A stretch of 64,000 nt of DNA from Candidatus Rokuibacteriota bacterium (lineage in GTDB: Bacteria; Methylomirabilota; Methylomirabilia; Rokubacteriales; CSP1-6), in assembly GCA_016179965.1 (NCBI GenBank), contig JACPCF010000008.1, forward strand, positions 9,601-73,600, in the 5' to 3' direction. Positions 4,182 to 53,074 of this stretch are shown here, piece by piece; position 1 is the first letter of the stretch, and the number at the start of each line of letters is the position of its first letter. Position numbers and translations under genes: made by a program. The notes beneath the pieces were generated by a model, which did no database searches, was not told where the DNA came from, and worked only from the letters and a program-made list of their open reading frames with translations.

Positions 4182-4248
4182 GCGCGTGCCTCCAGCACGC
4201 CTACCCTAGCCCCCGAGTCTCGACGGGGTCAAGCGACGAGGACACCGC

Positions 4249-34721: not shown

Positions 34722-34918
34722 CACACAGGGGCCGAGATGAACCCGATCTTCCAATGGATCGTTGCCCATACCACGGCGAAGTCGCTGGCACGACGCTGCC
34801 CACAATGTCAACGCACGCAAATTGTGGGTCGCAGCCAGGTCCGGGACACGGTACCCTGTGAGTTTTGCCGAACGCCTATTCCGCCGAAGGGCAGTTCGGG
34901 AGAAGGCTCGGGCACCTG

Positions 34919-36619: not shown

Positions 36620-36634
36620 CCGCCCGAGGCGCCG

Positions 36635-37390
36635 TCAGCCGATGGCGGTCACGAGCCAGGCGAGGAGCCCCCGGACCGCGGCGGGGCCCGGGAGCCGGTA
36701 GTTGGCCCGCGCGGGCTGCCGCCCCACTGCCACGCAGAGCGCTCGGCCGCGGAGCGCTCGGAAGGCCTCCGCGTCCGTTTGATCGTCCCCCAGGTAGAGC
36801 GTGACGGGGACCCCCTGGCCGAGGGACCTGCCCAGAATACGGCGGAGGAGCCCCGCGGCTTCTCCCTTGCCCCAGGCGACGTCGGGTCTCAGCTCGAGTA
36901 CCTTCTGCCCCGCCAGGACTTCCAGAGTGGGGCCCTCGGCCGCGACCCGCCGGACTGCAGCCCGCAATGCCGGAAGGGCCGCCGGGGGGGCGAGCCGGTA
37001 GTGGAGGCTCACCATTAAGCCCTTCCACTCGAGGAGCGTGCCAGGGACGTAGGCGGCGGTCCGCCGGAGTTCCCGCTCAGCCCTTCTCAGGCGCCGAACC
37101 AGCCGTACCGCCCGTGGGTGGCGAAAGCGAACCCCGCGCCAGGCAATCTCGAGGCCGTGGCAGCCAGCGTAGGCCGCGCCGGGGACCCTCACGCGCGCCC
37201 GGACGTCGCGGAGGCTGCGCCCCGAAACGATCCCCACCCGGGCCCGAGGGTGGCGGCTCAGGCGGGCGAGAAGGCGCCGCGTCTCGGGGGGGAGGCGGAC
37301 AGCCTCGGGGCGAGCCCGGATGGGCGCCAGCGTGCCATCCAGGTCGGAGAGGAGGACGAGCCCCCGGCCGCCTCGGAGGGCGGCGGTCAG
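36635..37390 (-). CDS. otsB: trehalose-6-phosphate phosphatase (HAD family) with unresolved start
   Basis: HAD motif I LLSDLDGTLAPI is encoded in-frame upstream of the GTG proposed by the ORF track (37237). That upstream frame has no ATG, GTG or TTG and abuts the otsA stop (frame +1); a CTG at about 37390 is the only candidate. Confidence 0.6.
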   Translation of the reverse strand: MTAALRGGRGLVLLSDLDGTLAPIRARPEAVRLPPETRRLLARLSRHPRARVGIVSGRSLRDVRARVRVPGAAYAGCHGLEIAWRGVRFRHPRAVRLVRRLRRAERELRRTAAYVPGTLLEWKGLMVSLHYRLAPPAALPALRAAVRRVAAEGPTLEVLAGQKVLELRPDVAWGKGEAAGLLRRILGRSLGQGVPVTLYLGDDQTDAEAFRALRGRALCVAVGRQPARANYRLPGPAAVRGLLAWLVTAIG

Positions 37391-37415
37391 GTGAGCGCGG
37401 AGCCGCCGCGTCGCG

Positions 37416-39644
37416 TCAGACCTCCGCGACCCCGGCCCGGTCCACCGAGAGGCGGGTGAGCTCCTCCAGCAGAAGCCCGGCCCAGCGGTAGATGTTGCGC
37501 TCCCGCACGATCTGCTTCATCCGGCGCATGCGGATGGCCCGTTCGGCCGGCGGCATCTCGATGGCAAGGCGGATCGCCTCGGCCATCTCGTCGATGTGAT
37601 AGGGGTTGACCTGAAGCGCGTCCACCAGCTCCCGCGCAGCGCCGGTGAACCGGCTCAGGATCAGGACACCCCGCTCCTCCTCCGCCGCGGACACGTACTC
37701 CTTCGCCACCAGGTTCATCCCGTCGTGGAGGGACGTGACCATGCAAAAATCGGCGTGCCGGTAGTAGGGCCAGATCTCCTTGTGGCTGTGGTGGCCGCGG
37801 AGATACGCGATCGGCTTCCACTGGTTGGTCCGGAGGCTCCAGTTGATCTTCTCCACGGCCCGGTCCACTTCCTCGTCGAGATCCTGGTAGCGCTTGATGT
37901 GGCTCCGGCTCGGCGCGGCCAGCTCGACGAAGACCATCCTCTGGCGATAGTCGGGGTACCGCTCGAAAAAGCGCTCGATGGCCCGGAGCCGTTCGAGGAT
38001 CCCTTTCGTGTAGTCGATCCGGTCCACGCCCACTCCCAGGAACTCCACGGAGGGTCCCAGATCTTTCAAGAGCTCGTCGCGCGAGACCCCGACGTCTGCG
38101 GGGTCAGGGGCGGGAGCGACGCTGATGGGAAACGGCTTCACGTAGGTCGTGTGCCGCCCGCGCACGACCCCGAAGCGCTCCCGGTCCACGCGCGCCTCGA
38201 TGGTCCGGTCCACCGTTTCTAGGAAGTTATTGCAGTGGAACTGAATGTGGAAGCCGATGAGGTCGGCGCCCAGCATCCCCAGGAGGATCTCTTGCTGCCA
38301 CGGGCAGATTCCGAAGGCCTCGGGGTTCGGCCAGGGGATGTGCCAGAACAGCACGATCCGGGCGTCCGGCCGCCGGTCCTTCACGAGTCGCGGGAGGAGC
38401 GCGAAGTGGTAGTCCTGGATCAGCACGTACGGGCGTTCGGTCCCCTCCATCTCTTCCAGCAAGGCCTCGGCGAACTTCTCGTTGACCCGCCGGTAGGCGG
38501 CCCAATCAGACGCGCGGAACACCGGGCGGGTGTGGGCGATGTGGCAGAGCGGCCACAGGCCCTCGTTGGCGAAGCCGTTGTAGTAGCCGTCTTCCTCCTC
38601 TTTGGTGAGCCACACCCGCTTCAACGTGTAGGCGGGCTGCTCGGGGGGGACGCCGACCTTGTCCTGGGCGTCCACGGTCTCTCGGTCGGCGTCGCCGCTG
38701 CCGTGGGCGATCCACAGCCCGCCGCAGGCGTGCATGATCGGCTCGAGGGCCGTGACGAGCCCGCTGGCCGGCTCGACGGTTTCGATCTTTCGTCCCCGCC
38801 ACTGGTGGATGAGCGGCTCCCGATTCGAGACCGCGAACAGCGGGGTGTCGTTCAACTGACTCCGTACGAACTGCTTCAGCCGCTCCGCGGTCCAGAGGGC
38901 CTCGCCCTCCAGGCGCAGCAGCGCCTCGCGCTCCGCCGCCGCCCGGGCGTCATCGAGGCTCCTGGCCAGCTCGGTGAACTCCGACGCGAGCGAGCCAAAG
39001 AGCTGGCCGGAGACCGGCGGAGGGGCCGTCTTGCCTGCGCGCATTTGTTGCGCCCACTCCGCCATTCGTCGCAAGGGATGGGTGATGCTCCATCTGACGA
39101 CAAGGAGGGTGAGCAATGAGACCACGCTGGCCAGGATCATTAGGCGCACGGCGTTCTGCTGCCACAGGGCCGACAGGTGAAACTCCAGCTGACTGGCGTC
39201 GAGAAAGATCACCAGCGCCCCGGCCGGGCGCTCCTCGCCCTGGAGCGGCACCGCGTAGAGATAGGTCTTCTGCCCGCCGAGGGTCTCGACCCCCTTCTGG
39301 GCCTGCCCCGTGGTCAGCGCTTGGGAGATGATGGGAAGCGACGAAGGGAGCCTGGGAGCCAGGTCCGGGGTCGCCACCAGCAGTCCGGCGAACTGATCGT
39401 AAACGGCGATCCCGCGCCTGGGAGACCCGAACTTTTTCAAGATGCGCTCGATCCGCGCGGGTTGGCCGCGCAGGATCGCCGGCTCGATCGCCTCCTTGAG
39501 CCCTTCTCCCATGAGCCAGGCGCGTCGCTCCAGGTCGGTCAGCATGCGGGAGCGCTCGGACTGGACCTGGAGGAAGGCGAACCCGGCGATGATCACCAGC
39601 GAGGAAACCCAGATCGCGCCGAGAAGGCGGATGACGAGTCTCAT
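37416..39644 (-). CDS. otsA: alpha,alpha-trehalose-phosphate synthase fused to an N-terminal membrane-anchored sensor domain and HAMP domain
   Basis: Residues ~1-250: TM helix, ~150-aa periplasmic-type segment, second TM helix, HAMP-like ITHPLRRMAEWAQQMRAGK...ASEFTELARSL. Residues 250-742: GT20 OtsA core (GFANEGLWPLCHI, VLIQDYHFALLP, LGVDRIDYTKG). Confidence 0.85.
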   Translation of the reverse strand: MRLVIRLLGAIWVSSLVIIAGFAFLQVQSERSRMLTDLERRAWLMGEGLKEAIEPAILRGQPARIERILKKFGSPRRGIAVYDQFAGLLVATPDLAPRLPSSLPIISQALTTGQAQKGVETLGGQKTYLYAVPLQGEERPAGALVIFLDASQLEFHLSALWQQNAVRLMILASVVSLLTLLVVRWSITHPLRRMAEWAQQMRAGKTAPPPVSGQLFGSLASEFTELARSLDDARAAAEREALLRLEGEALWTAERLKQFVRSQLNDTPLFAVSNREPLIHQWRGRKIETVEPASGLVTALEPIMHACGGLWIAHGSGDADRETVDAQDKVGVPPEQPAYTLKRVWLTKEEEDGYYNGFANEGLWPLCHIAHTRPVFRASDWAAYRRVNEKFAEALLEEMEGTERPYVLIQDYHFALLPRLVKDRRPDARIVLFWHIPWPNPEAFGICPWQQEILLGMLGADLIGFHIQFHCNNFLETVDRTIEARVDRERFGVVRGRHTTYVKPFPISVAPAPDPADVGVSRDELLKDLGPSVEFLGVGVDRIDYTKGILERLRAIERFFERYPDYRQRMVFVELAAPSRSHIKRYQDLDEEVDRAVEKINWSLRTNQWKPIAYLRGHHSHKEIWPYYRHADFCMVTSLHDGMNLVAKEYVSAAEEERGVLILSRFTGAARELVDALQVNPYHIDEMAEAIRLAIEMPPAERAIRMRRMKQIVRERNIYRWAGLLLEELTRLSVDRAGVAEV

Positions 39645-40269: not shown

Positions 40270-41472
40270 TCAGGCGCCGAACTTGGTCAGGCGCAACCCG
40301 TTGGCCAGAATGAGAGGCATCAACTCCTGGGCGGCGAGCACGCCCAGGCTCCCGGCGGCGCAGGCGCGCTCGGTAAACTCGGTCACGGGGTCGGCGCCGC
40401 AGTAGGCGCTCCAGAGCAGGAGGGGCACGGGCTGCCAGCCGTGGCCCTTCAGGACCGCCGGACTCGCGTGATCGCCCGTGACGGCCAGGACGTCGGGCTT
40501 GAGGCTCAGGATCTGGGGGATGAACCCGTCCAGCCGCTCCAGGGCGGCGACCTTGCCCGCGAAATCCCCGTCCTCGCCGGCCTTGTCCGTGTCCTTGTAA
40601 TGGAGGAAGAAAAAGTCGTACGCCTCCCGGTGCTGGCGGAGCGTGGCGACCTCGTCGGCGAAGGTCGCGCCCGTTTTCAAGACCTCCATGCCCACGAGGC
40701 GCGCCAGCCCGCGGTACATCGGGTAGGCGGCGATGGCTGCGGCCTTCAGGCCGAACGTCTTGGGAAACGACGGCAGGCGGGGGAGTTGGTCGAAGCCGCG
40801 GAGGAGGATCATGTTCGCCGGCGCCTCCCCGGCGAGCGCCTTCCGGGCGGCGGCCACGAAGCGGTTCACCAGGGCCGCGGTGCGCTTGGCCGCGGGCGCG
40901 AGCGCCTTGACCGGCAGCGCCGGGACGCCGAGGCTCTGCGGGTCCGACTCCGACAGCCGTCCGGACAGGCCGGCCCCGCGGAGGATGAGCACGAAGCGGT
41001 GCTCCTTGACCGGCTCCACGAAGAGCTTCACGCCGGGGAAGCGGATGGCTCGGAGGCGCTGGCAGAGGCTGACGCACAGATCGGTGGCGATGCGACCCGC
41101 CCGCCGATCCGTGATGCGGCCTTCCCGATCCACCGTGCAGAGGTTGCCGCGCGCGGCCACGTCACCCGCGCGAAGCTCGAAGTCGATGCCGAGGGCTTCA
41201 AGAACTCCCCGGCCAACCTGGTACTTGAGGGGGTCGTACCCGAAGAGGCCGAGGTGGCCGGGCCCGCTTCCCGGCGTGATGCCCGGCCCCACGTGGCGGA
41301 GCAGACCGCACGCCGAGCGCGCCGCGAGGGCGTGGAGGGTCGGGATTCGCGCCGTCTCGAGCTCCGACTTGCCGGTGTTGGGGTGGGGGAGCCCTCCCAG
41401 GCCGTCGAGGGAAAGGAGCACGAGCTTCGTCGTGTTCGGGATGATCAGATTGCGGATCAGCTCGAGATCCAT
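40270..41472 (-). CDS. cofactor-independent phosphoglycerate mutase, archaeal-type (ApgM family)
   Basis: 400-aa C-terminal part of the 722-aa ORF; SLDGLGG, GSGPGHLG, ...AVTGDHASP blocks typical of ApgM and phosphopentomutase-like metalloenzymes. Confidence 0.75.
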   Translation of the reverse strand: MDLELIRNLIIPNTTKLVLLSLDGLGGLPHPNTGKSELETARIPTLHALAARSACGLLRHVGPGITPGSGPGHLGLFGYDPLKYQVGRGVLEALGIDFELRAGDVAARGNLCTVDREGRITDRRAGRIATDLCVSLCQRLRAIRFPGVKLFVEPVKEHRFVLILRGAGLSGRLSESDPQSLGVPALPVKALAPAAKRTAALVNRFVAAARKALAGEAPANMILLRGFDQLPRLPSFPKTFGLKAAAIAAYPMYRGLARLVGMEVLKTGATFADEVATLRQHREAYDFFFLHYKDTDKAGEDGDFAGKVAALERLDGFIPQILSLKPDVLAVTGDHASPAVLKGHGWQPVPLLLWSAYCGADPVTEFTERACAAGSLGVLAAQELMPLILANGLRLTKFGA

Positions 41473-41765
41473 GCGGTTCCTTCCCCGATCCACTCGGCCA
41501 CGTGGACCCGCGTTTCGCCCAGGTACCGGAAGGCCGGATCGAACTCGTAGGCTACGACGCACTGGTCGTCGCCATCCAGGTAGCGGATGACGAAGCGGTC
41601 GCTCCCGAGCGCCCGCGCGTCGATGCTCCGGCATCCCTCCATGGCCAGGCCGAGCCGCTCCATGAGCTCCACCAGGGTGAAGACGCGATCCCCCAGCATG
41701 AGGAGCGGGGATCCCGTCCCCAGAGCCCCGAACCGCGCCTCGAAGGCCGCCCGCCGTTCCGCCAT
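41457..41765 (-). CDS. hypothetical protein
   Basis: About 100-aa protein-like ORF overlapping the apgM-like start by 16 nt; no family recognised. Confidence 0.3.
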   Translation of the reverse strand: MAERRAAFEARFGALGTGSPLLMLGDRVFTLVELMERLGLAMEGCRSIDARALGSDRFVIRYLDGDDQCVVAYEFDPAFRYLGETRVHVAEWIGEGTAWISS

Positions 41766-41932
41766 CGCCGTTCCCGCAGGGGCAGCATACCATCCGCGCG
41801 CAAAGCCGGGCAACCGCCCGTCCCTTGTCGCCGGGGGGGAAATCCCCTATAATCGCCGCACTCTGGACCCGTGAAGGCGAAAGACCTCCTGGCTGCCCCA
41901 CGACGCTGGCCCTGAAGGAGGGACACGACTCA

Positions 41933-43357
41933 ATGGCTGAGCCCGAGCCCCTCAAAGGCGGGCGCCGGGGCCGACCGCCCTGGCCCGCAACCCCTCCGCC
42001 GACCCCCGACGAGGTGTATGGCAGCCTCGCCGAGCAGGCGCGGGAGTACCCGAAGTTCCTCGAGTCCATCGTCCACCCGGACAAAACCTTCAACAAGCCC
42101 GAGGCGCTCGACCGCATCCGCGTCCTGGACTGCTCCACGGGCATGATCATCGGCCACTGGGCTTCGTCCATGCTGGCGGAGCTGGGCGCGGAGGTCATCC
42201 AGGTGGAGCCGCCGGGGGGCGATCCCCTTCGCCAGCTCACCCCGTTCGGACGCAAGGAGTACATGGTCAAGGACAAGCAGCGCGGGGAGCCCGTCGGGCT
42301 GCACTTTCTCCACGAGATGAGGAACAAGCTCGCGGTCACCCTCGACCTGGACAAGAAGGAAGGGCGCGAGATCCTCCAGAAGCTCGCCACCCACGTGGAC
42401 GTCATCATCGAGAACGCGCCTCCCGGCCAGTGGGACAAGTGGGGGATCGGCTACCGCCAGCTCTCGAAGCTAAACCCGCGCCTGGTCTACTGCTGGGTGG
42501 GCCAGCGCGGGCAGTGGGGGCCGCTCAAGGACAAGCCGGGCATGCGCGACCCGGTGGCCCAGTGCGCCTCGGGCTTCGTCCACGCCACCGGGGACCCGAA
42601 GGAGTTCGGCGGGCGGCCCACGCGCTCGGGGATGTGGGTGGCCGATCACGTCGGCGGCACGGCCGCCGCCATGGGGATCGTCGCGGCCCTCAATCACCGC
42701 GAGCGCACCTCGGGCAAAGGCCAGTTCATCGAGGCCACCGCCGCGGAGGGGATCATCCGCATCCTGGATTACAACTGGGTGTGGCACGGCATGGACGGGT
42801 CCATTCGTCCCCGGTACGGCAACTGGGACCTAGCCATCAACATCTACGCGGTCAACCCGTGCAAGGACGGCTACATGATGGTGGGCGGCGGCCACGACCG
42901 CCTCTGGTACCGGATCTGGAAGACGGTCGGCGACGAGGTACCGCAGGCCGAGGAGGAGATCATCGCCGACACCAACCTCCGCAACATCTCCGAGCGGCTT
43001 CCCCACACCCGCCAGGTGAAGACGTACACGCTGCTCTGCGAATGGCTGAAGGACAACACGCGCGCCGAAGCGGAACGGAAGCTGGTCCGCCAGGAGGTCG
43101 CCTCGGGCGGCGTCATGGCCATCCACGAGGTGGCGGAGTACCCGCACTTCAAGTACCGGAAGCAGGTCGCCGAGTTCGACGACCAGCTCTACGGTAAGGT
43201 GCTGGTCGGCACCTCGCCGCACCTCGCCGAGAAGATCCCCGCCCGGCTGAAGTGGATCGGCCGGCCCGTGGGGTATGACAACGAAGAGGTGTACCGGCGC
43301 CTGCTGGGCTTCACCCGCGACGATTTCGACCGACTCGCCAAGCAGGGGGTAATGTGA
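41933..43357 (+). CDS. family III CoA-transferase (CaiB/BaiF/Frc family), paralogue 1
   Basis: N-terminal L(D/E)xxRVLD...G.WASSMLAELGAEVIQVEPPGGDPLR, central GYRQL and PRLVYC blocks. Confidence 0.85.
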   Translation: MAEPEPLKGGRRGRPPWPATPPPTPDEVYGSLAEQAREYPKFLESIVHPDKTFNKPEALDRIRVLDCSTGMIIGHWASSMLAELGAEVIQVEPPGGDPLRQLTPFGRKEYMVKDKQRGEPVGLHFLHEMRNKLAVTLDLDKKEGREILQKLATHVDVIIENAPPGQWDKWGIGYRQLSKLNPRLVYCWVGQRGQWGPLKDKPGMRDPVAQCASGFVHATGDPKEFGGRPTRSGMWVADHVGGTAAAMGIVAALNHRERTSGKGQFIEATAAEGIIRILDYNWVWHGMDGSIRPRYGNWDLAINIYAVNPCKDGYMMVGGGHDRLWYRIWKTVGDEVPQAEEEIIADTNLRNISERLPHTRQVKTYTLLCEWLKDNTRAEAERKLVRQEVASGGVMAIHEVAEYPHFKYRKQVAEFDDQLYGKVLVGTSPHLAEKIPARLKWIGRPVGYDNEEVYRRLLGFTRDDFDRLAKQGVM

Positions 43358-44754
43358 TGGCGGCCAGGGGGAAGAAGCCCAACAACCAGAACGCGCGCCC
43401 GCCGAAGCCGGTCGCCAACCCAGACTTCGAGCGCTACTGCCGTCAGACCTTCAGCCCCGCGTCCACCTTCGCCAAGCCCGAGGTCCTCAAGGGCTACCGG
43501 GTCCTCTCCTGCACCCAGTACATTCTGGGGCCCTCCTGCGCCACCTATCTGGGCGAGCTCGGCGCCGAGGTGATCAAGATGGAGCTGCCGCGCCGCGGCG
43601 AGCCCATGCGCCACTCGACGCCGGGCAACGAGGGCTTCCTCTATCCGCTGTCGCGCTGGGTGCCGCAGTCGGGGACCGGCCTCGGCTTTTTCGGCGCCAA
43701 CTTCAATGAGTATTTCATCTCCATGGACTTCCACCGGTCCGAGGCGCGGGAGCTCATGTATCGGCTCGCCGCCAAGGCCGACGTCATGGTGGAGAACTAC
43801 CGCCCCGGCACCTTCGACCGCTGGGGGATCGGCTACCGCCAGCTCCGCGAGATCAATCCACGCCTGATCTACGTCTGGCTCGGCGGCTTCGGGGGTTGGG
43901 GACCCGGGCGCGTGCGGGCGTCGTACGACATCCTGGGCCAGGCCCAGGGCGGCGCCTTTTCGATTACGGGACAGCCGGAGGAGTTCGGCGGCTCCCCCTC
44001 CAAGCACACCATCTGGCTCGCCGACTACTGGGGCGGGATGATGGGGGCGCTGCACGCGCTCTCGGCGCTCTACTGGCGCGACAACGTGTCGGGGGAGGGG
44101 ACCTTCATCGAGTACAGTCAGGTCCACGGCGTCAGCCGCCAGCTCGAGTATGCGCTCCCCCTCTACGGTCGCCAGGGCGTGATCCGCGAGCGCTGGGGCA
44201 ACTGGGACACCGAGCTCTGCGTGCACGGGATCATCAAGTGCGGCAAGTCGTCCTATCCCAACTCCGACAACCCCCAGGAGCAGGAGGAAGGGTACGTCCT
44301 GATCTCGGCCTACGAGGACGAGGACTTCGCCCGCCTCGCGAAGGCTATCGGCCAGGAGAAGTGGGTGCGGCTTTATAAGAGCCATGATGCGCGCGTCAGC
44401 CCGGAGAGCCAGCGCGAGATCTACCCCGCGCTCGAGGCCTGGGCCAAGGACAAGACCAAGGAGCAGGTCGCCCAGATCCTGGATCGCGCCGGGATCATCA
44501 CGCAGCCGGTCTGGAACGCCAAGGAGGTGGCCGGCCATCCCCACTGGCGCGAGCGCGGCTCGATCCGCTGGCTCGACGATCCGACCTACGGGGACGTGCT
44601 CTCCCAGGGGCCGGCCTACAAGATGTCGGACACGCCCCCCCGGGTGAAGTGGGCGCTCAAGCCCATCGGCGCCGACAACGAGCTGATCTACGGCAAGCTG
44701 TGCGGCCTCTCTGCCGAGGAGCTCAAGCGCCTCGAGGCCGAGGAAATCATCTGA
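43354..44754 (+). CDS. family III CoA-transferase, paralogue 2
   Basis: Same architecture (YRVLSCTQYILGPSCATYLGELGAEVIKMELP, GIGYRQLREINPRLIYV); start overlaps the upstream stop. Confidence 0.85.
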   Translation: MMAARGKKPNNQNARPPKPVANPDFERYCRQTFSPASTFAKPEVLKGYRVLSCTQYILGPSCATYLGELGAEVIKMELPRRGEPMRHSTPGNEGFLYPLSRWVPQSGTGLGFFGANFNEYFISMDFHRSEARELMYRLAAKADVMVENYRPGTFDRWGIGYRQLREINPRLIYVWLGGFGGWGPGRVRASYDILGQAQGGAFSITGQPEEFGGSPSKHTIWLADYWGGMMGALHALSALYWRDNVSGEGTFIEYSQVHGVSRQLEYALPLYGRQGVIRERWGNWDTELCVHGIIKCGKSSYPNSDNPQEQEEGYVLISAYEDEDFARLAKAIGQEKWVRLYKSHDARVSPESQREIYPALEAWAKDKTKEQVAQILDRAGIITQPVWNAKEVAGHPHWRERGSIRWLDDPTYGDVLSQGPAYKMSDTPPRVKWALKPIGADNELIYGKLCGLSAEELKRLEAEEII

Positions 44755-45149
44755 TGCTGCTGAAGTGCGACAAGTGCGGGGTGAAGAACTACCTGGACCC
44801 GTATCCCTTCTGGAACTTCAAGGGGAAGACGAAGTGCGCCGGCTGCGACACCTACTACGCCGTGGAGATCGCCAACGGCAGCCCGGTCAGGCCGGCGCAG
44901 CCTGTCGGCGGGACGCTGAAAGACCCTGACCTCCGGCTCCCCGGCTTCGCCGACACGCCTGACTTCAAGCCCGTGACGGGGGAGGGGAAAACCCGCCCGG
45001 CCCCCCGCGCCCGGGCCGACGTCTATGGCAAGCCCAAGCCCGTCGTGAGGAACTCCCGGGGGCGCCTTGTGGCGGGGCGCCCGCTCAAACCCGAAGAGCT
45101 GGTGGGATCCCGCGCCCGCTACATCGCGGAGGGGAAAGAGCCCCGGTGA
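44754..45149 (+). CDS. small zinc-ribbon protein embedded in the CoA-transferase cluster
   Basis: ATGA overlap with upstream stop; MLLKCDKCGVKNY...KTKCAGCDTYY has two CxxC pairs; basic C-terminus. Confidence 0.5.
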   Translation: MLLKCDKCGVKNYLDPYPFWNFKGKTKCAGCDTYYAVEIANGSPVRPAQPVGGTLKDPDLRLPGFADTPDFKPVTGEGKTRPAPRARADVYGKPKPVVRNSRGRLVAGRPLKPEELVGSRARYIAEGKEPR

Positions 45150-45303
45150 GACACCCGGCGTTCCGACATTATCTGGACGCCGTTCGGGCGCGGGCCTTGC
45201 CGCGACCCGCGCCACGTAAAGTGGCGCGGGTGCCCGTAGAGGTGGCTCGCCTTCGCTCGCGCTTGCGTCAAGGGGGAAGGGGGGCGGAGCCCCCCTCCGA
45301 GGT

Positions 45304-46635
45304 ATGAGTGAGTCGTACTTCGACTGGACGCGGAAGCTCTTCGATCGGACCCGGATCTTCGACAAGCCCGAGGCCCTGCGCGGGGTCCGGGTCCTCGAGC
45401 TGACCACCCTCGTCCTCGGACCCTCCACCGCCGACTTCCTCGGCGAGTTCGGCGCCGAGGTCGTCAAGGTGGAGCTGCCCCCCGGCGGCGACACCATGCG
45501 CTACGTGACGCCCGAGGCCACCTACTGGCAGAACGCGTCGCTCGGGTTCTTCCCCACGAATCACTCCAAGTACCACGTGGGAATCGACCTCCACGCCCCC
45601 GAGGGCAAGGAGCTTTTCAAGCGGCTGGCGGCCAAGTCCGACATCTTCGTGGAGAATTTCCGGGCGGGCACGCTCGATAAGTGGGAGATCGGCTACCGGC
45701 AGCTCCGCGAGGCGAACCCGCGCCTGATCTATGTCGCCGACTCGGGCTTCGGCCAGTGGGGGCCGTTCTCCCAGGGGCGCGCCTCCTACGACGCCGTGGC
45801 GCAGACGGTGAGCGGCATGATCGGGATCACGGGCTTCCCCGGCCGGCCGCCGATCCTGTGCGGGATCTTCGTCGGGGACTGGTTCGGGGGGCTGATGGCT
45901 TCCACCGCCGCGCTGGTCGCGCTCCATCATCGCCACAAGACCGGCGAGGGGCAGTTCATCGATTTCGCTCAGTCGGAAGGGCTGATCCGCTCCCTGGACT
46001 GGACGTGGGTCCGCCACGGACTGACGGGCCAGGACCGCGGACCGGCGGGGAACCGCGACGAGGCCATCGTGCCGGCCGATTTCCTGGCCTGCCGCGACGG
46101 GTTCGTGGCCCTGGCCGCGGGCAGGGACGAGGAGTTCAGGGGCCTCTGCGCCGCCATGGGAAGCACGGAGCTGGCCAAGGACCCCCGCTTCGCGACCCTG
46201 GAGGTGCGCCAGGTTCCCGCCAACGCCGGGGCGCTGCTCGCCCTCATCAGGAAGTGGGCCGCGGACAAGTCGCGCGCGGAGCTTGAGGGGCTGGGGGAAA
46301 AGCACGGCTTCGCGTGCTGCCGGGTGGCGAACGCCGAAGACCGGTATCGCGATGAACACCTCCGCGAGCGGGGGGCGGTCTGGCAGTACGATGATCCCCT
46401 GTACGGCCCGATGGTGGAGCAGGGGCCCGCTCCCAAGCTGTCGGCCACGCCGGGCCGCATGCGCTGGGCGGCCAAGCCGGTGGGCTGGCACAACGAAGAA
46501 GTGCTGACCCGCCTCCTCGGGCTTTCTCCCGGCCGGATCAAGCAGCTGGAGGAAAAGAAGGTCGTCGGCCGGTGGGCCGACCGCCCGGGGGCGAAGCCCC
46601 CCGACCAGTGGCTGAAAGCCCACGAGCAAAAATGA
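45304..46635 (+). CDS. family III CoA-transferase, paralogue 3
   Basis: RVLELTTLVLGPSTADFLGEFGAEVVKVELPPGGD, GYRQLREANPRLIYV. Confidence 0.85.
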   Translation: MSESYFDWTRKLFDRTRIFDKPEALRGVRVLELTTLVLGPSTADFLGEFGAEVVKVELPPGGDTMRYVTPEATYWQNASLGFFPTNHSKYHVGIDLHAPEGKELFKRLAAKSDIFVENFRAGTLDKWEIGYRQLREANPRLIYVADSGFGQWGPFSQGRASYDAVAQTVSGMIGITGFPGRPPILCGIFVGDWFGGLMASTAALVALHHRHKTGEGQFIDFAQSEGLIRSLDWTWVRHGLTGQDRGPAGNRDEAIVPADFLACRDGFVALAAGRDEEFRGLCAAMGSTELAKDPRFATLEVRQVPANAGALLALIRKWAADKSRAELEGLGEKHGFACCRVANAEDRYRDEHLRERGAVWQYDDPLYGPMVEQGPAPKLSATPGRMRWAAKPVGWHNEEVLTRLLGLSPGRIKQLEEKKVVGRWADRPGAKPPDQWLKAHEQK

Positions 46636-47942
46636 CCGATCAACCCCACTCCTGGCCCCGGTACGCGAAGGAGATCACCGACCCCGCGCTGGCTCACGAG
46701 AAGCCGGAGGCGCTGGACGACCTCCGGGTGCTCGACGCCAGCAGCGGGAACTTCGCCGCCCTGTTCGCCTCGTCGATCCTCGCGGAGTTCGGGGCCGAAG
46801 TGATCCGCCTGGAGCCGCCGGGGGGGGACGTGGCCCGGCTGTTCTCCCCTCAAGGCGTGAAGCACCGGGGCACGGGCCTGGCCTACCTGGTCGAGGCGCG
46901 GAACAAGCGCCACATCACGCTGAACCTCGACAAGCCGGCGGGGCGCGAGCTGTTCGCCCGCCTGGCCCGGCACGTGGACGTCGTGATCGAAAGCGCCAAG
47001 CCGGGGCAGATGGATGCCTGGGGCATCGGCTACCGGCGGCTGAGCGCGGGAAACCCGAGGCTGATCTACCTGGCGTTCTCGACCTACGGCCAGTTCGGGC
47101 CCAAGGCCGCCTCGCCGATCCCCGATTACGACATCACGAACCAGGCCCTCTCCGGCACGCCCTACACGACCGGGGAACCCGCAGGGGAGGGCGGGCCCGA
47201 ATCCTCGGTTCCCACGAAGCAGGGCAACTGGATGGCCTGGTACGTCGGCGGCGGGTGGGGGGCCTTCGCCGTGCTGGCGGCCCTGATCTGGCGGGAGGCC
47301 TCCGGCCAGGGGCAGTTCATCGACTGCTCGCCGGCCGAGGCCGAGATGCGCTTCACGGACTACGACATCCACTGGTATCACGCGAACAAGCGGATCCGCG
47401 AGCGTCTGGGGGCGCTGAACGTCAGCGTCTTTCCCTACACGCTCATTAAGACGAAGGACTCCTACTCGTTCATCGCCGGGTTCTCCGATATCAACTGGAC
47501 CGGCCTCACCAACATCGTGGGTCGGCCCGATCTGAAGGAACGCTACCCCACGACGAAGGCCCGGATCGGGGAGAGCAAGCTGCTCCACCGCGAGCTGGAG
47601 GGCTGGGCCGCCGGCCTCACCTCCCAGGAAGTCCTCGACCGAGTCCAGGACTACGTGGCCAACAAGCGGGGCCCGGGGACCGTGGCCTCCGCCCGCCTCA
47701 ATCGGCCTTCCGATACCCTCGGCGAAACTCATTGGTGGGAACGGGGGGTCTTTGAGAGAATAGGAGATCCGGACTACGGGGAGCTCCTGCTGCAGGCGCC
47801 CCCGTGGAAGATGTCCCGGACGCCGCCCCGGATCAAGTGGGCCTGCCGGCCGGTGGGGGCGGACAACGAGATGGTGTACCTGAAGTACCTGGGCCTGGGC
47901 CGGGAGCGGCTCCAGGCCCTGAAGGCCGAGGGCGTCATCTAG
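46632..47942 (+). CDS. family III CoA-transferase, paralogue 4
   Basis: ATGA overlap with paralogue 3; LRVLDASSGNFAALFASSILAEFGAEVIRLEPPGGD. Confidence 0.85.
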   Translation: MTDQPHSWPRYAKEITDPALAHEKPEALDDLRVLDASSGNFAALFASSILAEFGAEVIRLEPPGGDVARLFSPQGVKHRGTGLAYLVEARNKRHITLNLDKPAGRELFARLARHVDVVIESAKPGQMDAWGIGYRRLSAGNPRLIYLAFSTYGQFGPKAASPIPDYDITNQALSGTPYTTGEPAGEGGPESSVPTKQGNWMAWYVGGGWGAFAVLAALIWREASGQGQFIDCSPAEAEMRFTDYDIHWYHANKRIRERLGALNVSVFPYTLIKTKDSYSFIAGFSDINWTGLTNIVGRPDLKERYPTTKARIGESKLLHRELEGWAAGLTSQEVLDRVQDYVANKRGPGTVASARLNRPSDTLGETHWWERGVFERIGDPDYGELLLQAPPWKMSRTPPRIKWACRPVGADNEMVYLKYLGLGRERLQALKAEGVI

Positions 47943-47983
47943 CGCCCCGGCGAGCGTGCGGCGCGGTAGAAAAGGAGGACGCG

Positions 47984-48373
47984 ATGGGTTTCAAACTGGT
48001 GAGCGCGGTCCTGATGGTAGCCCTGGCTCTGAGCGGGCCCTTGGTGCCCCTGGTCTGGGCGCAGGAGAAGACCGAGGGGCAGATGGCTCCCGCCAAGAAG
48101 GATGACGGTGCCTGGGAGTTCGCCGCGGGGGTCACCAACACGATCGCCGTCCCCGGCCGGGCCTTCCTGTGTGGCGTTGGCGCGCTGACAGGGGTGGCGG
48201 TGCTCCTGATCACGTTCGGCAGCGGCACCGAGGCGGCAGCGGGCGTCTGGAACGGGTCGTGCGCGGGCAAGTGGACCGTCACGGCGGCGGACCTGAAGCC
48301 GAAGGGTGAGGACTCGCAGTACATTACTGACCGGCCGGACTATAGGAAGTCGGACTACCAGAGGACAGAATAA
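47984..48373 (+). CDS. small secreted protein, hypothetical
   Basis: RBS AAAGGAGGA; signal peptide MGFKLVSAVLMVALALSGPLVPLVWAQ. Confidence 0.5.
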   Translation: MGFKLVSAVLMVALALSGPLVPLVWAQEKTEGQMAPAKKDDGAWEFAAGVTNTIAVPGRAFLCGVGALTGVAVLLITFGSGTEAAAGVWNGSCAGKWTVTAADLKPKGEDSQYITDRPDYRKSDYQRTE

Positions 48374-48386
48374 CCAGAGGTCAGCC

Positions 48387-48983
48387 ATGGGGGAGATCCT
48401 CTGCCCGAGCTGCCACCACTTTGTCCCGGCCCTGGACCCAAACATCGCCCGGGCCTTCCTCGGCGCCTGCAAGAAAAAGGAGGCGCCGTTCCTCCTGATC
48501 CTGCCGAAGGAGGGCGTCACCGAGTGCGACGTGTACCTGAAGGCTTCGAAACGGGCTCAGGTGGCGGGCCCGGAAAGGGTCGGCGTCAGCCCGGCAGCGA
48601 AGGCCGCGGGCCCCGCCGAGAAGCGCCTGGCGTTCTTCTACTCCAGCGCCACCGTGCCGGGGGAGCAGTTTCCGTGTGATCCGAAGAAGGCCCTGTCCCT
48701 CCTGGAGCAGCTCAAGGCCCGGGGAGTCCAGTGCGAGGTCCGAGATGTCGCGAAGCAGAAGGACGTGTTCCCCGACTACCACAAGGCGGTGACCGGCCCC
48801 AGCGCCCAGAAGCGGCCGGTCTTCGGAGCCAAGGGCGCTCTCGAGGAGGACTTCGGCCGCCGGGTCCCAGCGCTCATGATCTTCGAGGGCGATCGCTATC
48901 CGACTGAAGTCTTTCCCCGGATGGATCGAGAGCTGAACCGGGTCCTCGGCGTGGAGGAGGCCCTCGAGCGCCTGCTGAAGTAA
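48387..48983 (+). CDS. thioredoxin-fold protein with N-terminal CPSC motif (glutaredoxin/ArsC-like), hypothetical
   Basis: ILCPSCHHF redox motif near the N-terminus; second half (VQCEVRDVAKQKDV...) ArsC/Spx-like. Confidence 0.45.
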   Translation: MGEILCPSCHHFVPALDPNIARAFLGACKKKEAPFLLILPKEGVTECDVYLKASKRAQVAGPERVGVSPAAKAAGPAEKRLAFFYSSATVPGEQFPCDPKKALSLLEQLKARGVQCEVRDVAKQKDVFPDYHKAVTGPSAQKRPVFGAKGALEEDFGRRVPALMIFEGDRYPTEVFPRMDRELNRVLGVEEALERLLK

Positions 48984-48993
48984 TCACCCTGCG

Positions 48994-50649
48994 ATGGGCA
49001 AGATCCCTCCGCACTACCTGCCGCCGAAGGAGCTCTGGCCTCAGCGGCTCTATACCCTGCCTGAGCACAAGACGTATCCCCAGAAGCTGAACTCCACCGA
49101 AGAACTGGTGGACCGCCACGTGGAGGCCGGCAGCGGCGACCGCGTGGCGATCCTCTTCGAAGACCAGAAGATCACCTACAAGGCCCTCCAGGCGGGGGTC
49201 AACAAGCTCGGCTCGTCGCTCAAGGGGCTCGGCATCGAGGAGGAGGACCGCGTGCTCCTCCGCTCCCCGTCCATCCCCCCGGCTCTGGTCGCCAACTTCG
49301 CCGTCATCAAGATCGGGGCGATCGCCGTGCCGACCTCGCCCCTCTTCTCCCGAGCGGAGCTCGCCCACGTGGCGGCGAACACGGAGGCCGTCGCCCTCAT
49401 CGTGGCGGCCCCCCTGCTGGAGGAGGTGGAGAAGGCGCGCGCCGACCTCAAGACGATCACGCACATCATCGTCATCGGTGGCGAGCCCGCGGATCTGAAG
49501 GCCAAGGGCTACATCCCCTACGGCGAGCTGATGGCCAAGGGGTCGGAGAGGCTCGAGCCCGTTCGCCGGGACCGGATGGCGGTGTCGGTGCTGCTCTTCA
49601 CCTCAGGGACCACCGGCCTCCCCAAGGGCACCGTTCACTTCATGGAGGAGGCGCTGATCGTCCCCGACGGCTTCGGCAAGTACGGCTGGCGGGTCACCCC
49701 GGACGACGTGATCGGCGGTCCGGCGCCGCTGTCGCTGGCGGCGGGCTACTCGACCCAGGCCGTCATCCCCTTCCGCTTCGGCGGCGCGGTCTCGCTGCTG
49801 CCGCGCTTCACGCCGGAGGGGATGTTCGAGACGATCCAAAAGCACCGAGTCACGGTCGTGTCCATCCTCCCCACCGCGTACCGGAAGATGCTCCAGGTGC
49901 CGAACGCGGAGAAGACCTATGACATCTCCTCGGTCAGGATCTTCACCGGGGGCGGGGAATCGCTGACCGCCCAGACCTACCACGACTGGAAGACCAAGTT
50001 CGGCAAGGAGATCTACGAGGGGCTCGGCACCACGGAGATGATGTTCGTCTTCGTCTCCTCCGCCGTCACCCGCAAGGTGAAGCCCGGCGCCATCGGCCCG
50101 GCCGTGCCCGGCTACGAGCTCCGGGTGATCACCGAGGACGGCAAGGAGTGCAAGCCCGGGGAGGTCGGGCTCCTGATCGCGCGGGGGCCCACGGGGACGG
50201 TGTATTGGCGTGATCCAGATAAGCAGCGCTCCGCGGTGAGGGAGGGCTGGTGCCGCGCCGGCGACTTCGTCACGCTGGATGAGGACGGCTACGTCTGGTT
50301 CCTCTCGCGGGAAGACGACCTGATCAAGTCCTCAGGCTACCGGATCGGCCCCGAGGAAATCGAGGAGGCCCTGGCCAAGCATGCCGCCGTGGCCGACGTG
50401 GGCGTCATCGGGGTCCCCGACGCCGTGCGCGGCCAGAACACGCGCGCCTATGTAGTTCCCAAGCCCGGCTCGGCGCCCTCGGAGGCGCTCAAGCAGGAGC
50501 TGATCGAGTTCTGCCGCGACAAGATCGCGGTGTACAAACTCCCCCGCGAGATCGAGTTCACCGAGAGCCTGCCTCGCGCCCCGGGCCCCGCCGGCCCGGG
50601 GACCGGAAAGCTCCTGCGCCGCGTCCTCCGCGAGAAGCTGAAGGCTTAG
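48994..50649 (+). CDS. AMP-forming acyl-CoA or aryl-CoA ligase (adenylate-forming family)
   Basis: AMP-binding signature TSGTTGLPKG, YGTTE-like GLGTTE, GYRIGPEEIE hinge, C-terminal conserved Lys region. Confidence 0.85.
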   Translation: MGKIPPHYLPPKELWPQRLYTLPEHKTYPQKLNSTEELVDRHVEAGSGDRVAILFEDQKITYKALQAGVNKLGSSLKGLGIEEEDRVLLRSPSIPPALVANFAVIKIGAIAVPTSPLFSRAELAHVAANTEAVALIVAAPLLEEVEKARADLKTITHIIVIGGEPADLKAKGYIPYGELMAKGSERLEPVRRDRMAVSVLLFTSGTTGLPKGTVHFMEEALIVPDGFGKYGWRVTPDDVIGGPAPLSLAAGYSTQAVIPFRFGGAVSLLPRFTPEGMFETIQKHRVTVVSILPTAYRKMLQVPNAEKTYDISSVRIFTGGGESLTAQTYHDWKTKFGKEIYEGLGTTEMMFVFVSSAVTRKVKPGAIGPAVPGYELRVITEDGKECKPGEVGLLIARGPTGTVYWRDPDKQRSAVREGWCRAGDFVTLDEDGYVWFLSREDDLIKSSGYRIGPEEIEEALAKHAAVADVGVIGVPDAVRGQNTRAYVVPKPGSAPSEALKQELIEFCRDKIAVYKLPREIEFTESLPRAPGPAGPGTGKLLRRVLREKLKA

Positions 50650-50657
50650 CGTCTCAG

Positions 50658-50716
50658 GGGGTCAGGTCTTGCAATAACGCATCGTAACGAATTGTTGGAT
50701 TGCAAGACCTGACCCC
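50658..50716 (+). promoter_or_regulatory. 18-bp perfect inverted repeat (GGGGTCAGGTCTTGCAAT, 23-nt loop, ATTGCAAGACCTGACCCC) ending at the ATG of the next gene
   Basis: Sits 9 nt after the ligase stop; right arm abuts the CusF-like start codon at 50717 with no free Shine-Dalgarno; no T-run. Confidence 0.5.
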
Positions 50717-51040
50717 ATGTGGAAGGTGGTCGCCCTGTTCGTGGTTCTCCTGCTGGGTTTCGCCCTCGGCATCTGGGGGACCTACCGCGCGGTCTATCCC
50801 GAGAAGGGGGTGCACCGTCTGACTGCGGTCTTCCAGTCGCGGGCGGGGGACACGGCGATCCTGGTCGGCCACGAGGCCATTCCCGCCCTCTCGATGGGCT
50901 CCATGGAACTGATGGCCTTCGACGTCGAGTCGAGGGCCTTGGTGGATCAGGCCGGGCTCAAGCCCGGTGACCGCGTCCGGCTCACCATCCGTCAGACGCG
51001 CGATCGCCTCCTGGTGGTGAAAATCGACAAGTTCCGGTGA
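50717..51040 (+). CDS. CusF-like periplasmic Cu(I)/Ag(I)-binding protein
   Basis: N-terminal TM/signal, then small beta-barrel pattern AILVGHEAIPALSMGSMELMAF...GDRVRLTI collinear with CusF (His, Met, Met ligands). Confidence 0.6.
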   Translation: MWKVVALFVVLLLGFALGIWGTYRAVYPEKGVHRLTAVFQSRAGDTAILVGHEAIPALSMGSMELMAFDVESRALVDQAGLKPGDRVRLTIRQTRDRLLVVKIDKFR

Positions 51041-51194
51041 CGCGTCAGAACCAGCGCCGCAGCCACCACTTCTCGAACCAGATCTTCCCCCAGTGCCAGA
51101 TCCTGCCGGGGGAACGCAGCCTGAGGACGGGAGCCGGGTCCGCGTAAAAGTTCCCCCCTGCGTAGGCGGCCACACCGTGGCCCATTTCCAGGAT

Positions 51195-52193
51195 TCAGTA
51201 GCCGTCGCCCTGGAAGGCCCGCCGGCCGCCGCGGCCGGTGATCTCGGCCGCGATGTTCGCGGCCACGGCCTCCGCCTCGTAGTGGGCGAAGACCCCGGCC
51301 TTGGGGAGCATCAGTCCGACCGGCAGCTTGATCGCCGTGACATCACCGAGGGCATAGACGCCCTCATGAGCGGTCTGGAGGGTCCCCTTGTCTACCGGCA
51401 CCCAGCCGGCCTCTCCCACCAGCCCGGACTCCTTGACCACAGGCGGGCAGCGGTGGGGCGGAATCGCCACGAGGAGGTCGTAGTCGGCCCGCTCCCCGTT
51501 CTCGAAGACCAGCTCCTGCCGCTCGGATTCCACCGCCTGGAGCTTGTGCTGAGGGTGGAAGTCGATGCCCTTGCTCGCGACCATGGCCTTCACGGCTTCT
51601 CCCATCGCCTTGCCCGCGACGGGCATCGGAAGAGGCTCGGGGGTGTAGATGTCCAGCCGAGCCCGCTCGCGGAGCCCCCGCTCCCGGAGGGAGGCCTCGA
51701 TCAGCATCGCCGCCTCGTAGGGGGCCCCGGGGCACTTGAAGGGCAGGCTTGCTACCGTCACCGTCACCCGGCCTTCCTTGAACGACGTGAGGGCCTGACG
51801 GAGCCCCAGCACGCCGTCCAGATCGTAGAGGTTATGGCCGCCCTCTGCCAGGCCGGGGACCGCCTCCGCCCGCCCCTCGGCCCCGAGGGCCACGATCAGG
51901 AAGTCGCCTGAGATCTGGCGCTTGTCGGTCCTGACGAGGCGCCGGGCCGGGTCGATCTCCCTGATCTCCTCGTGCACCACTTCGATTCCCTTCCGCTCCA
52001 GCCGGCTCAGGTCGCGGGTGATCTCCCGCGGCTCCCGCCATCCGAGCATCATCCAGAGAAAGGACGGGGTATAGACGTGCTGCGCCGCGCGGTCCACGAG
52101 GACGATCCGGTGCTTCCGGTCGAGGCTCCGCCTCAGCGTGTTGGCGGCCACCAGCCCTCCCACGCCCCCGCCGAGAATCACGATCGTCGCCAT
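51195..52193 (-). CDS. FAD-dependent pyridine-nucleotide-disulfide-family oxidoreductase, sulfide:quinone oxidoreductase-like
   Basis: Rossmann motif IVILGGGVGG at the N-terminus, second dinucleotide site, Cys-containing FKCPGAPYE segment, C-terminal GDV motif; 332-aa real CDS within a 524-aa ORF-track artefact. Confidence 0.7.
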   Translation of the reverse strand: MATIVILGGGVGGLVAANTLRRSLDRKHRIVLVDRAAQHVYTPSFLWMMLGWREPREITRDLSRLERKGIEVVHEEIREIDPARRLVRTDKRQISGDFLIVALGAEGRAEAVPGLAEGGHNLYDLDGVLGLRQALTSFKEGRVTVTVASLPFKCPGAPYEAAMLIEASLRERGLRERARLDIYTPEPLPMPVAGKAMGEAVKAMVASKGIDFHPQHKLQAVESERQELVFENGERADYDLLVAIPPHRCPPVVKESGLVGEAGWVPVDKGTLQTAHEGVYALGDVTAIKLPVGLMLPKAGVFAHYEAEAVAANIAAEITGRGGRRAFQGDGY

Positions 52194-52204
52194 CGCTTGG
52201 CTCC

Positions 52205-52867
52205 TTACCCCCGTCGCCCCGTCACGGCCAGAAAGGTGGCCAGCCCGGGCGTCCACCGGGCCCCTGCTGTTTCCCAGCCTCGAAGATACCGCACCCCGCG
52301 ACGGCGGGAAACGGGCAAGAAGTGGACCGCCCCGCGCCACCGGAGATCGCGGAATCCCCCCTCCTCCAGCAGCCGCCTCAGGTCTCCGAGGCCCAGAAAG
52401 GCCGCGTGCCGCCAGACGGATCGGACGAAGTGTCGCTTCAGGCGGCGCCAGAGGGTCCAGAGCCCGGTCCGATTCAGGATCGCGACAAGGTCGAAGGCAC
52501 CTGCCCGGAAGGGCAGCGCGCCTCCGTCCGCTCGGACTAGCGCGAGGGCGATTCCCCCGCGCCGGGCCTTGGCGCGGGCGACCCGGAGCATCGGCTCGGA
52601 GACGTCCACGCCCACCACCCTGAAGCCCCGCTGGGCCAGCGCCAGGGCGTAGTTCCCCGTGCCGCAGGAGAGGTCGAGAGCCAGCGCGCCCGGCCTGGGC
52701 TCCAGCAGGGTGAAGATGGCGTTCTTCTCCGGCTGATCGACGAGCCGGCCGACGGGCGTCTCGTACCACAGGTCGTACGACGAGGCAAGCGCGTCGAACG
52801 CCGCAGCCGGCTCTGGACCCGGCTCGGCCCTACCACCCCCTTCCCGCGGGCTTCGTTCGGCCCTCAA
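52205..52867 (-). CDS. class I SAM-dependent methyltransferase (start uncertain)
   Basis: Motif I LDLSCGTGNYALALA, post-I VGVDVSEPML; the only in-frame start candidates downstream of the small upstream ORF are TTG/CTG. Confidence 0.55.
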   Translation of the reverse strand: MRAERSPREGGGRAEPGPEPAAAFDALASSYDLWYETPVGRLVDQPEKNAIFTLLEPRPGALALDLSCGTGNYALALAQRGFRVVGVDVSEPMLRVARAKARRGGIALALVRADGGALPFRAGAFDLVAILNRTGLWTLWRRLKRHFVRSVWRHAAFLGLGDLRRLLEEGGFRDLRWRGAVHFLPVSRRRGVRYLRGWETAGARWTPGLATFLAVTGRRG

Positions 52868-52920
52868 GGCCTTCCGCCCTTCTCTCTCACCCCTGCGGCC
52901 CGCAGGATGACCATGGACGG

Positions 52921-53074
52921 TCAGAAGTTCGTGAAGGCCGACTGGATCAGGTTCACCCCCATCAGGCCGGCCAGCCACAGCCATAGAGGGGTGTGGTAAA
53001 CGGCGAGGAGGACGCTGGCGAGGACTATGATCCCCCCCCAGCAGTCGGAGCCACTGCTCCATGTACAGCGTCAC
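52921..53074 (-). other. candidate about 50-aa small membrane protein (DUF2892-like end ...[12 protein letters not shown]) whose reading frame is broken at a G8 homopolymer
   Basis: Strong RBS AAAGGAGGTGA 7 nt before GTG 53074. N-terminal [14 protein letters not shown] runs into GGGGGGGG (~53022-53029), after which the +1 frame gives [36 protein letters not shown]. Confidence 0.3.

Follow-up and report, generated by a model that had tools for sequence, protein, structure and literature searches.

We analysed a 64,000-nucleotide stretch of DNA (the window) from a Candidatus Rokuibacteriota bacterium (contig JACPCF010000008.1), which has a G+C content of ~68% and whose closest relatives are metagenome-assembled genomes (MAGs) of Candidatus Rokubacteria/Methylomirabilota. 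Between positions 41933 and 50649 the forward strand carries one operon of closely packed genes, in the order CT1, CT2, ZnR, CT3, CT4, Sec, the gene for a 198-aa protein and Lig (Table 1). Here, CT1-CT4 are four family III CoA-transferase paralogues, ZnR is a 131-aa zinc-ribbon protein and Lig is a ligase; loci in other genomes are given L numbers. An earlier note, made from the letters of the window, had described four consecutive CaiB/BaiF/Frc-type genes interrupted by a double-CxxC zinc-ribbon gene and followed by a small secreted protein, a thioredoxin-fold protein with a CPSC motif and an AMP-forming CoA ligase. It had overlooked p110, which diverges from CT1, and the CusF-like gene that follows Lig. 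Comparison with other genomes shows that the operon is composed of two interleaved modules: module A (p110, CT1-CT2-ZnR and the 198-aa protein) and module B (CT3-CT4-Sec, followed by Lig and the CusF-like gene).

Table 1. Genes and sequence elements of the operon and its borders, in positions of the window.
Feature	Coordinates	Strand	Evidence or remark
p110: 102-aa conserved protein, divergent from CT1, module A	41457-41765	-	tblastn with p110 of other loci; translation
Sigma-70-like promoter, TTGTCG-17-TATAAT	41825-41853	+	80 nt upstream of CT1 start
CT1: family III CoA-transferase, module A	41933-43357	+	PF02515, E 9e-88
CT2: family III CoA-transferase, module A	43354-44754	+	PF02515, E 8e-87; start is GTG 43354 or ATG 43357
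ZnR: 131-aa Cys4 zinc-ribbon protein, module A	44754-45149	+	conserved Cys and tail; no Pfam/NCBIfam match
Spacer, 154 nt, G+C-rich, structured	45150-45303	+	minimum free energy -88.4 kcal/mol, z = -3.1
CT3: family III CoA-transferase, module B	45304-46635	+	PF02515, E 1e-109
CT4: family III paralogue, Trp for catalytic Asp, module B	46632-47942	+	PF02515, E 3e-93
Sec: 129-aa protein, signal-peptide-like N-terminus, module B	47984-48373	+	sequence; kept in relatives; no Pfam match
198-aa Cys4 and thioredoxin-like protein, module A	48387-48983	+	no Pfam/NCBIfam match
Lig: AMP-forming acyl/aryl-CoA ligase, ANL superfamily	48994-50649	+	PF00501 and PF13193
Inverted repeat, 21 nt, 95% complementary, 23-nt loop	50655-50719	.	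directly 3' of Lig stop
CusF-like small protein, N-terminal hydrophobic segment	50717-51040	+	PF11604, E 2e-10

All four transferases match PF02515 (CoA_transf_3) over their full length (E ~1e-87 to 1e-110, profile positions 1-359/366), as the earlier note had read them. Their pairwise identity is 32-39% (39% for CT2-CT3 and 38% for CT1-CT4), and in a neighbour-joining tree built with orthologues from many loci they fell into four separate clades, of which those of CT2 and CT3 are sisters. The window siblings scored 199-295 bits against one another and at most 185 bits against any solved structure, their best matches in the PDB being formyl-CoA transferase, 4ed9, SUGCT and BbsF. Against the NCBIfam equivalogs for Frc, YfdE, CaiB, succinyl-CoA:mesaconate transferase, succinate-glutarate transferase and Mct, the best scores were 163-223 bits, while the cutoffs are 413-750. 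This divergence, the four ancient clades and the failure to reach any equivalog cutoff exclude tandem amplification of one characterised enzyme, which the earlier note had named, together with a lack of other pathway genes nearby, as the outcome that would undo its proposal. In comparison with the homodimeric enzymes Frc/YfdW and SUGCT, the window proteins belong to the same fold family, and CT1-CT3 share with them the nucleophilic Asp and an acidic residue at the Glu140 position of Frc; however, their scores fall well short of every equivalog cutoff, no oxalyl-CoA decarboxylase gene lies in the cluster, and the window genes are paired and include a member, CT4, without the Asp.

We take the nucleophile column to be the Asp169 position of Frc, and the Asp of the conserved 'YD…Q..SG' motif, ~29 residues before the nucleophile, to be the Glu140 position (we cross-checked this numbering with the PDB alignments). 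The nucleophile was present in 65/65 CT1 orthologues, which are 66-93% identical across phyla in the multiple sequence alignment (67-94% by tblastn), in 68/68 CT2 orthologues (67-92% identical in the alignment), and in CT3 and all CT3 orthologues examined; the acidic residue at the Glu140 position is likewise conserved in CT1-CT3. CT4, in contrast, has Trp in this column; in HMMER alignments three solved enzymes (SUGCT, 4ed9 and a formyl-CoA transferase) have their Asp opposite this Trp. Every CT4 row of the tree alignment had this Trp, down to 50% identity, and among six CT4 orthologues in the multiple sequence alignment five had Trp and one had Ala. CT4 is nevertheless as well conserved among close relatives as CT3 (77-92% versus 79-96%). 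The loss of the Asp suggests that CT4 is probably a non-catalytic partner of CT3. In family III enzymes the subunits interlock as dimers, and the active sites form at the interfaces between them (PMC9196870). A dead paralogue conserved beside a live one is, in such a family, best explained by an obligate heterodimer of CT3 and CT4 that has a single type of active site, and, judging from these alignments, CT3/CT4 would be a clear example in family III of a paralogue that is conserved although catalytically dead.

Along the row, start and stop codons either overlap or lie directly side by side. CT3 and CT4 overlap by ATGA, the sole true ATGA in the row, and CT2 and ZnR share one nucleotide in TGATG. 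CT1 and CT2 overlap by GTGA or, with ATG at 43357 as the start of CT2, by one nucleotide in TGATG. Two ATGA-joined pairs had been proposed, which is right for CT3/CT4 and wrong for CT1/CT2. These overlapping starts and stops make the genes translationally coupled at all three junctions.

To see where else the operon occurs, we scanned one genome per GTDB species with ZnR; 115 genomes matched, and co-occurrence was counted in the 80 loci kept, with only those having enough flank for a given feature in the denominator. CT1 and CT2 lay upstream of ZnR in 65/65 loci, a thioredoxin-like domain was encoded downstream in 72/75 and a ligase downstream in 62/69, and p110 was present in 55/59. The module CT1-CT2-ZnR-[Cys4 + thioredoxin-like]-ligase with p110 is near-invariant, and it occurs in at least 115 species genomes. 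The 80 listed genomes are all MAGs, and belong to Methylomirabilota/Rokubacteria and many Acidobacteriota (Terriglobia, Thermoanaerobaculia), with single bins of Armatimonadota, Chloroflexota, Gemmataceae and Acidithiobacillales. The set as a whole is 50-75% identical across phyla, and CT1, CT2 and Lig are 61-75% identical between Methylomirabilota and Acidobacteriota. Candidatus Rokubacteria bacterium CSP1-6 (L009, L010) has two CT2-ZnR copies on different contigs, with ZnR 91% and 90% identical to that of the window; these may be two copies of the module or strain heterogeneity.

ZnR has the pattern of a zinc ribbon, with two conserved CxxC knuckles ~20 residues apart (C5-x2-C8 and C28-x2-C31), as had been noted before; among 26 diverse homologues C5, C28 and C31 never vary, while C8 is kept in at least 90%. 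Its long Pro/Gly/Arg-rich C-terminal tail is also highly conserved (motifs LLPGFAE, GxGKTRPAPRAR and RGRLVSGRPLKPEELVGSR), and an extended conserved tail of this kind is typical of a subunit that wraps a partner. All 283 homologues are full length (~125-142 aa) and annotated as hypothetical. Scans of Pfam and NCBIfam assigned ZnR to no family, not even to a Pfam zinc-ribbon model. A profile search of 1.84 billion representatives returned 67 clusters only (50% identity), and the family occurs essentially only in the CT1-CT2 context. Apparent ZnR fusions in that search, such as one with a 3-dmu-9_3-mt domain in P0318, look like read-through or chance neighbours and were set aside. ZnR had no match in 72,556 plasmids, where the best matches of CT1 were at most 34% identical and were generic CaiB/BaiF proteins.

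The 198-aa protein has two domains: an N-terminal Cys4 domain, in which C6, C9, C28 and C47 are invariant, and a C-terminal domain (residues 79-198) whose predicted structure superposes on thioredoxins and on T4 glutaredoxin over ~75 residues (alignments for structure prediction were made of sequences at least 51% identical). A thioredoxin-like fold, as proposed in the earlier note, is therefore plausible for the C-terminal domain. The CPSC motif on which the redox role was based, however, forms residues 6-9 and lies in the Cys4 domain, outside the thioredoxin-like one. We could not detect a redox CxxC or CxxS at the N-terminus of helix 1 of the thioredoxin-like domain, nor any conserved active-site Cys pair; C97, the sole Cys near the active-site position of the fold, has no partner and is Phe or Val in many homologues. 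In this the predicted domain differs from thioredoxin and glutaredoxin proteins. With CPSC in a separate Cys4 domain and no active-site CxxC in the fold, a redox thioredoxin role is not supported by the sequence.

In L003, L005, L024, L059, L064, L083 and L084 the Cys-rich and C-terminal parts are separate genes with p110 between them, while in most other loci they are fused, as in the window. Fusion in some lineages and splitting around p110 in others is a classic sign of functional linkage. The p110 copy of the window is 45-75% identical by tblastn to the p110 genes of other loci, which stand either between the Cys4 and thioredoxin-like genes (as a 110-aa form) or downstream as one or two copies. 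We found 55 p110 homologues, all hypothetical and without a Pfam domain. Its AlphaFold2 model has a mean predicted local distance difference test (pLDDT) score of 87, and a fold search with this model against the PDB gave no significant match. Pfam and NCBIfam scans also placed Sec, the 198-aa protein and p110 in no family.

One could argue from such results that the small reading frames (ZnR, the Cys4/thioredoxin-like protein, p110 and Sec) are independent neighbours, such as regulators or unrelated metal-binders, or are spurious, and that the transferases are a plain array of paralogues. Indeed, the small proteins match no known family, the fold search with p110 was uninformative, and Sec and the CusF-like protein seem to lie outside the cytoplasm, an unexpected place for partners of CoA enzymes that work inside it. 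However, the near-perfect co-occurrence in a fixed order across phyla, the overlapping starts and stops, the lineage-dependent fusion and splitting of domains and the confinement of the ZnR family to this context make this explanation very improbable. The high sequence conservation of the small proteins, for which hundreds of homologues of full length were found, likewise speaks against it.

Module B occurs on its own as well. CT3-CT4-Sec stands between ZnR and the Cys4/thioredoxin-like gene only in the window and in its closest Rokubacteria relatives (L008, L010-L014 and L016). A metagenome scan with CT4 revealed ~20 loci with a free-standing CT3-CT4-Sec-Lig-CusF-like row, in which Lig is 77-81% identical to that of the window and no CT1, CT2, ZnR or thioredoxin-like gene was found within 6-8 kb. 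A CT3 orthologue adjoins CT4 in every module B locus, and free-standing copies are often beside Liv-type ATP-binding cassette (ABC) transporter genes. In L003 the ligase comes first, then the CT3 and CT4 orthologues (60% and 52% identical), and after them genes for an enoyl-CoA hydratase and a hydrolase. In L008, a Rokuibacteriota MAG, the CT4 orthologue (2807-5521) is interrupted by ~1.26 kb of inserted sequence, with its two matching parts at 2807-3973 and 5236-5521; the insert is possibly an insertion sequence (IS) element or an assembly artefact. Sec, taken before for a small secreted protein, does have a signal-peptide-like N-terminus (…LVWA/QEK); it also has a second hydrophobic stretch, and could be a membrane or a secreted protein. 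It keeps the same place, at 33-70% identity, both in relatives of the window and in free-standing module B loci.

Lig is a full-length AMP-forming CoA ligase, as first read, with AMP-binding (PF00501, E 4.5e-70) and AMP-binding_C (PF13193, E 4e-20) domains. Its best NCBIfam and PDB matches are generic (PRK06187, the acetyl-CoA-synthetase-like 9g79, anthranilate- and benzoate-CoA ligases), and it reached no cutoff of the NCBIfam curated equivalogs. Orthologues of Lig, 61-92% identical, follow both module A and module B, and the presence of the same kind of ligase in both argues that their chemistry is related. The CusF-like gene comes after Lig in more than 15 loci and is a conserved neighbour of Lig in module B.

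We favour, with a probability of about 0.55, the reading that the operon encodes a ligase-primed, heteromeric family III CoA-transferase system, in which two merged modules share one ligase, carry small subunits and act on a small organic acid. In this system CT1 and CT2 would form an interlocked catalytic dimer with a nucleophilic Asp in both chains. ZnR, the Cys4/thioredoxin-like protein and p110 would bind it tightly as small subunits, and their role would lie in structure, metal binding or gating rather than in thiol redox chemistry. CT3 and CT4 would form a second heterodimer, with CT3 catalytic and CT4 as the scaffold, that transfers CoA to or from a second acid. Lig would make the first acyl-CoA at the cost of ATP, and the transferases may then pass the CoA between product and incoming acid, by analogy with CaiC/CaiB and the ligase-primed 2-hydroxyacid CoA-transferases. 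The substrate would be a small organic acid, imported in other genomes by major facilitator superfamily (MFS) or Liv-type ABC transporters.

There are precedents for parts of this scheme. The CaiB/CaiC, FldA and HadA systems pair the gene of a family III CoA-transferase with that of an AMP-forming ligase able to provide the initial CoA thioester, and FldA belongs to a complex with metal-cluster subunits, a case of a transferase bound to Cys-rich partners. However, with the CaiB equivalog (cutoff 413) CT1-CT4 reach 80-132 bits, Lig does not attain the CaiC cutoff, and the window has neither a CaiD- or CaiA-type gene nor a 2-hydroxyacyl-CoA dehydratase gene.

Several observations count against the favoured scheme. 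The window and most Rokubacteria loci lack a gene for an enzyme to work on the CoA ester after its activation and before CoA transfer, which leaves the purpose of the CoA cycle unexplained. The closest relatives of Lig range from ligases of acetate to those of aryl acids and do not decide the substrate class, and in L017-L019 module A has no adjacent ligase. We infer, rather than show, the physical link of the small proteins to the CT1/CT2 dimer, the part of Lig in CoA recycling and the class of substrate, and the model of the N-terminal domain of the 198-aa protein is of low confidence.

The earlier note had proposed, instead, that two heteromers of the BbsEF type and a ligase begin the CoA-dependent catabolism of a carboxylic acid, with a redox CPxC thioredoxin or zinc-finger accessory and with the other pathway genes nearby. 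BbsEF is the two-subunit precedent in family III (PDB 9fn0, chains A and B; PMC10818641). The likeness is genuine in that the window has two pairs of adjacent diverged paralogues, presumably heteromeric, together with a ligase; in the PDB, BbsF (9fn0_B) is what CT2 matches best, and the matches listed for CT1, CT3 and CT4 include it too. An enoyl-CoA hydratase gene is also found beside CT3/CT4 in L003, L100, L125 and L159. Orthology to BbsEF, however, did not hold: the paralogues score 93-155 bits against the 9fn0 chains and 199-295 bits among themselves, and BbsEF has no zinc-ribbon, thioredoxin-like or p110 partners and no dedicated ligase. The dehydrogenase, hydratase and thiolase genes expected just beyond 50.7 kb were not found near the operon in the window, nor were bbsG, bbsH, bbsCD or bbsAB-like beta-oxidation genes. 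Since the flanks of the modules also differ between genomes, and CPSC lies outside a thioredoxin-like domain that has no conserved active-site Cys pair, we consider the BbsEF-type pathway distinctly unlikely.

The flanking genes at other loci were examined for clues to the substrate. MFS transporter genes precede CT1 of module A in 16 loci. Upstream of the module there are often Amidohydro_2 and ABM genes and a UbiU/UbiV-like pair of U32 peptidases; UbiU/UbiV are O2-independent hydroxylases. Such a peptidase-U32 pair with ABM and Amidohydro_2 lies a few kb before CT1 in L029 (2539-3522), L034 (3464-4396) and 17 other Acidobacteriaceae loci. Downstream of the module, Acidobacteriota usually carry genes for a small PAS protein (50 loci), two alpha/beta hydrolases (34 and 44 loci), DUF4177 (26 loci), one or two extra p110 paralogues, a hotdog thioesterase like FlK, of the fluoroacetyl-CoA thioesterase family (25 loci), and a type II haloacid dehalogenase (11 loci; TIGR01428, 225 bits versus a cutoff of 125). 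Haloacid dehalogenase and/or FlK-like genes stand downstream of the module in L052 (15752-17289) and about 25 other Acidobacteriota loci. These two neighbours are a possible hint at small 2-substituted or halogenated acids, and the peripheral genes together hint at small, possibly 2-substituted organic acids, although they are too poorly conserved to fix the substrate. In L005 (13142-19093) the gene right after the ligase encodes an adenylate kinase, which would recycle the AMP that the ligase produces; next comes a set for polyhydroxyalkanoate synthesis (a weak PhaE-like match, PhaC-like, a short-chain dehydrogenase/reductase and a thiolase).

The main rival to CoA transfer is that CT1/CT2 and the small subunits convert the product of the ligase, acting like the racemase AMACR, the intramolecular CoA mutase Mct or the transferase/lyase DddD. 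This would explain why the module is self-contained between variable flanks, and why hydrolases and a thioesterase trail it in Acidobacteriota: the alpha/beta hydrolases, FlK-like thioesterase and haloacid dehalogenase fit a path from ligase through conversion to thioester hydrolysis of small 2-substituted acids. Family III, moreover, includes racemases and an intramolecular transferase. However, CT1 and CT2 score 17-32 bits against the Mct model TIGR04253, whose cutoff is 725, and are closer to transferases than to racemases in the PDB; neither the window nor the Rokubacteria loci have the hydrolase and thioesterase genes. We therefore regard such a conversion as unlikely.

Tentative, and less likely than not, is a proposal that CT1-CT2, ZnR, the Cys4/thioredoxin-like protein and p110 form a new five-component enzyme on a family III core, shared by Methylomirabilota, Acidobacteriota and further uncultured lineages of soil, in which metal-binding subunits extend the chemistry to an isomerisation, a lyase reaction or a metal-dependent conversion of the bound thioester. 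If true, it would add three new protein families and a new reaction of carbon turnover in soil. The enzyme families involved, family III transferases and ANL ligases, are already known; in the literature that could be searched we found no description of the constant association with three small proteins, its wide spread, its listed carriers all being MAGs, or the dead CT4. Family III CoA-transferases are known as homodimers or two-subunit heteromers, and here a pair is constantly encoded with three unclassified small proteins. Full-text literature searches returned nothing on this module, on its small proteins or on a conserved dead CT4. The carriers include many dominant uncultured bacteria of soil and groundwater (Acidobacteriota, Rokubacteria), and the conservation across phyla suggests an important uncharacterised step in the organic-acid metabolism of uncultured bacteria.

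In the window itself, the sigma-70-like promoter was the sole promoter-like match in 41300-51300, for which 0.3 were expected from shuffles, and no terminator-like site was found on the + strand within the operon. The inverted repeat after Lig could be a terminator without a T-run or an element of translational control; the CusF-like gene has its start codon within the 3' arm. The 154-nt spacer before CT3 is lineage-specific, CT3 starting directly after ZnR in close relatives, and partial pieces of it reappear after ZnR in L009 and L021. An Rfam scan of the leader and the spacer for a riboswitch or other RNA element gave no match at E <= 1.

The upstream flank (a cofactor-independent phosphoglycerate mutase on the - strand, a GT20/OtsA-like protein with HAMP, a Na+/H+ exchanger and a TreT-type trehalose synthase) is unrelated to CoA metabolism. 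It includes a trehalose-related cluster at 32843-39644, composed of DUF5752, the TreT-type synthase, the Na+/H+ exchanger with TrkA-N and a 742-aa GT20 (OtsA-like) protein, which has an unusual N-terminal HAMP domain. Downstream, the CusF-like gene is followed by a flavoprotein like sulfide:quinone oxidoreductase, a methyltransferase, a LolA-like protein and an MMPL transporter. The flavoprotein, beside the CusF-like gene at 51195-52769 (-), is of the sulfide:quinone-oxidoreductase or flavocytochrome-c type (Pyr_redox_2 and FCSD_central); its reading frame overlaps that of the methyltransferase (52205-53074), and the start codons need revision. Further upstream, at 30582-31208 (-), there is an IstB-like IS21 helper ATPase gene (PF01695, E 7e-60) inside a stretch of lower G+C content (~62-65% at 22-34 kb versus ~70% elsewhere), which suggests an insertion sequence or an acquired region.

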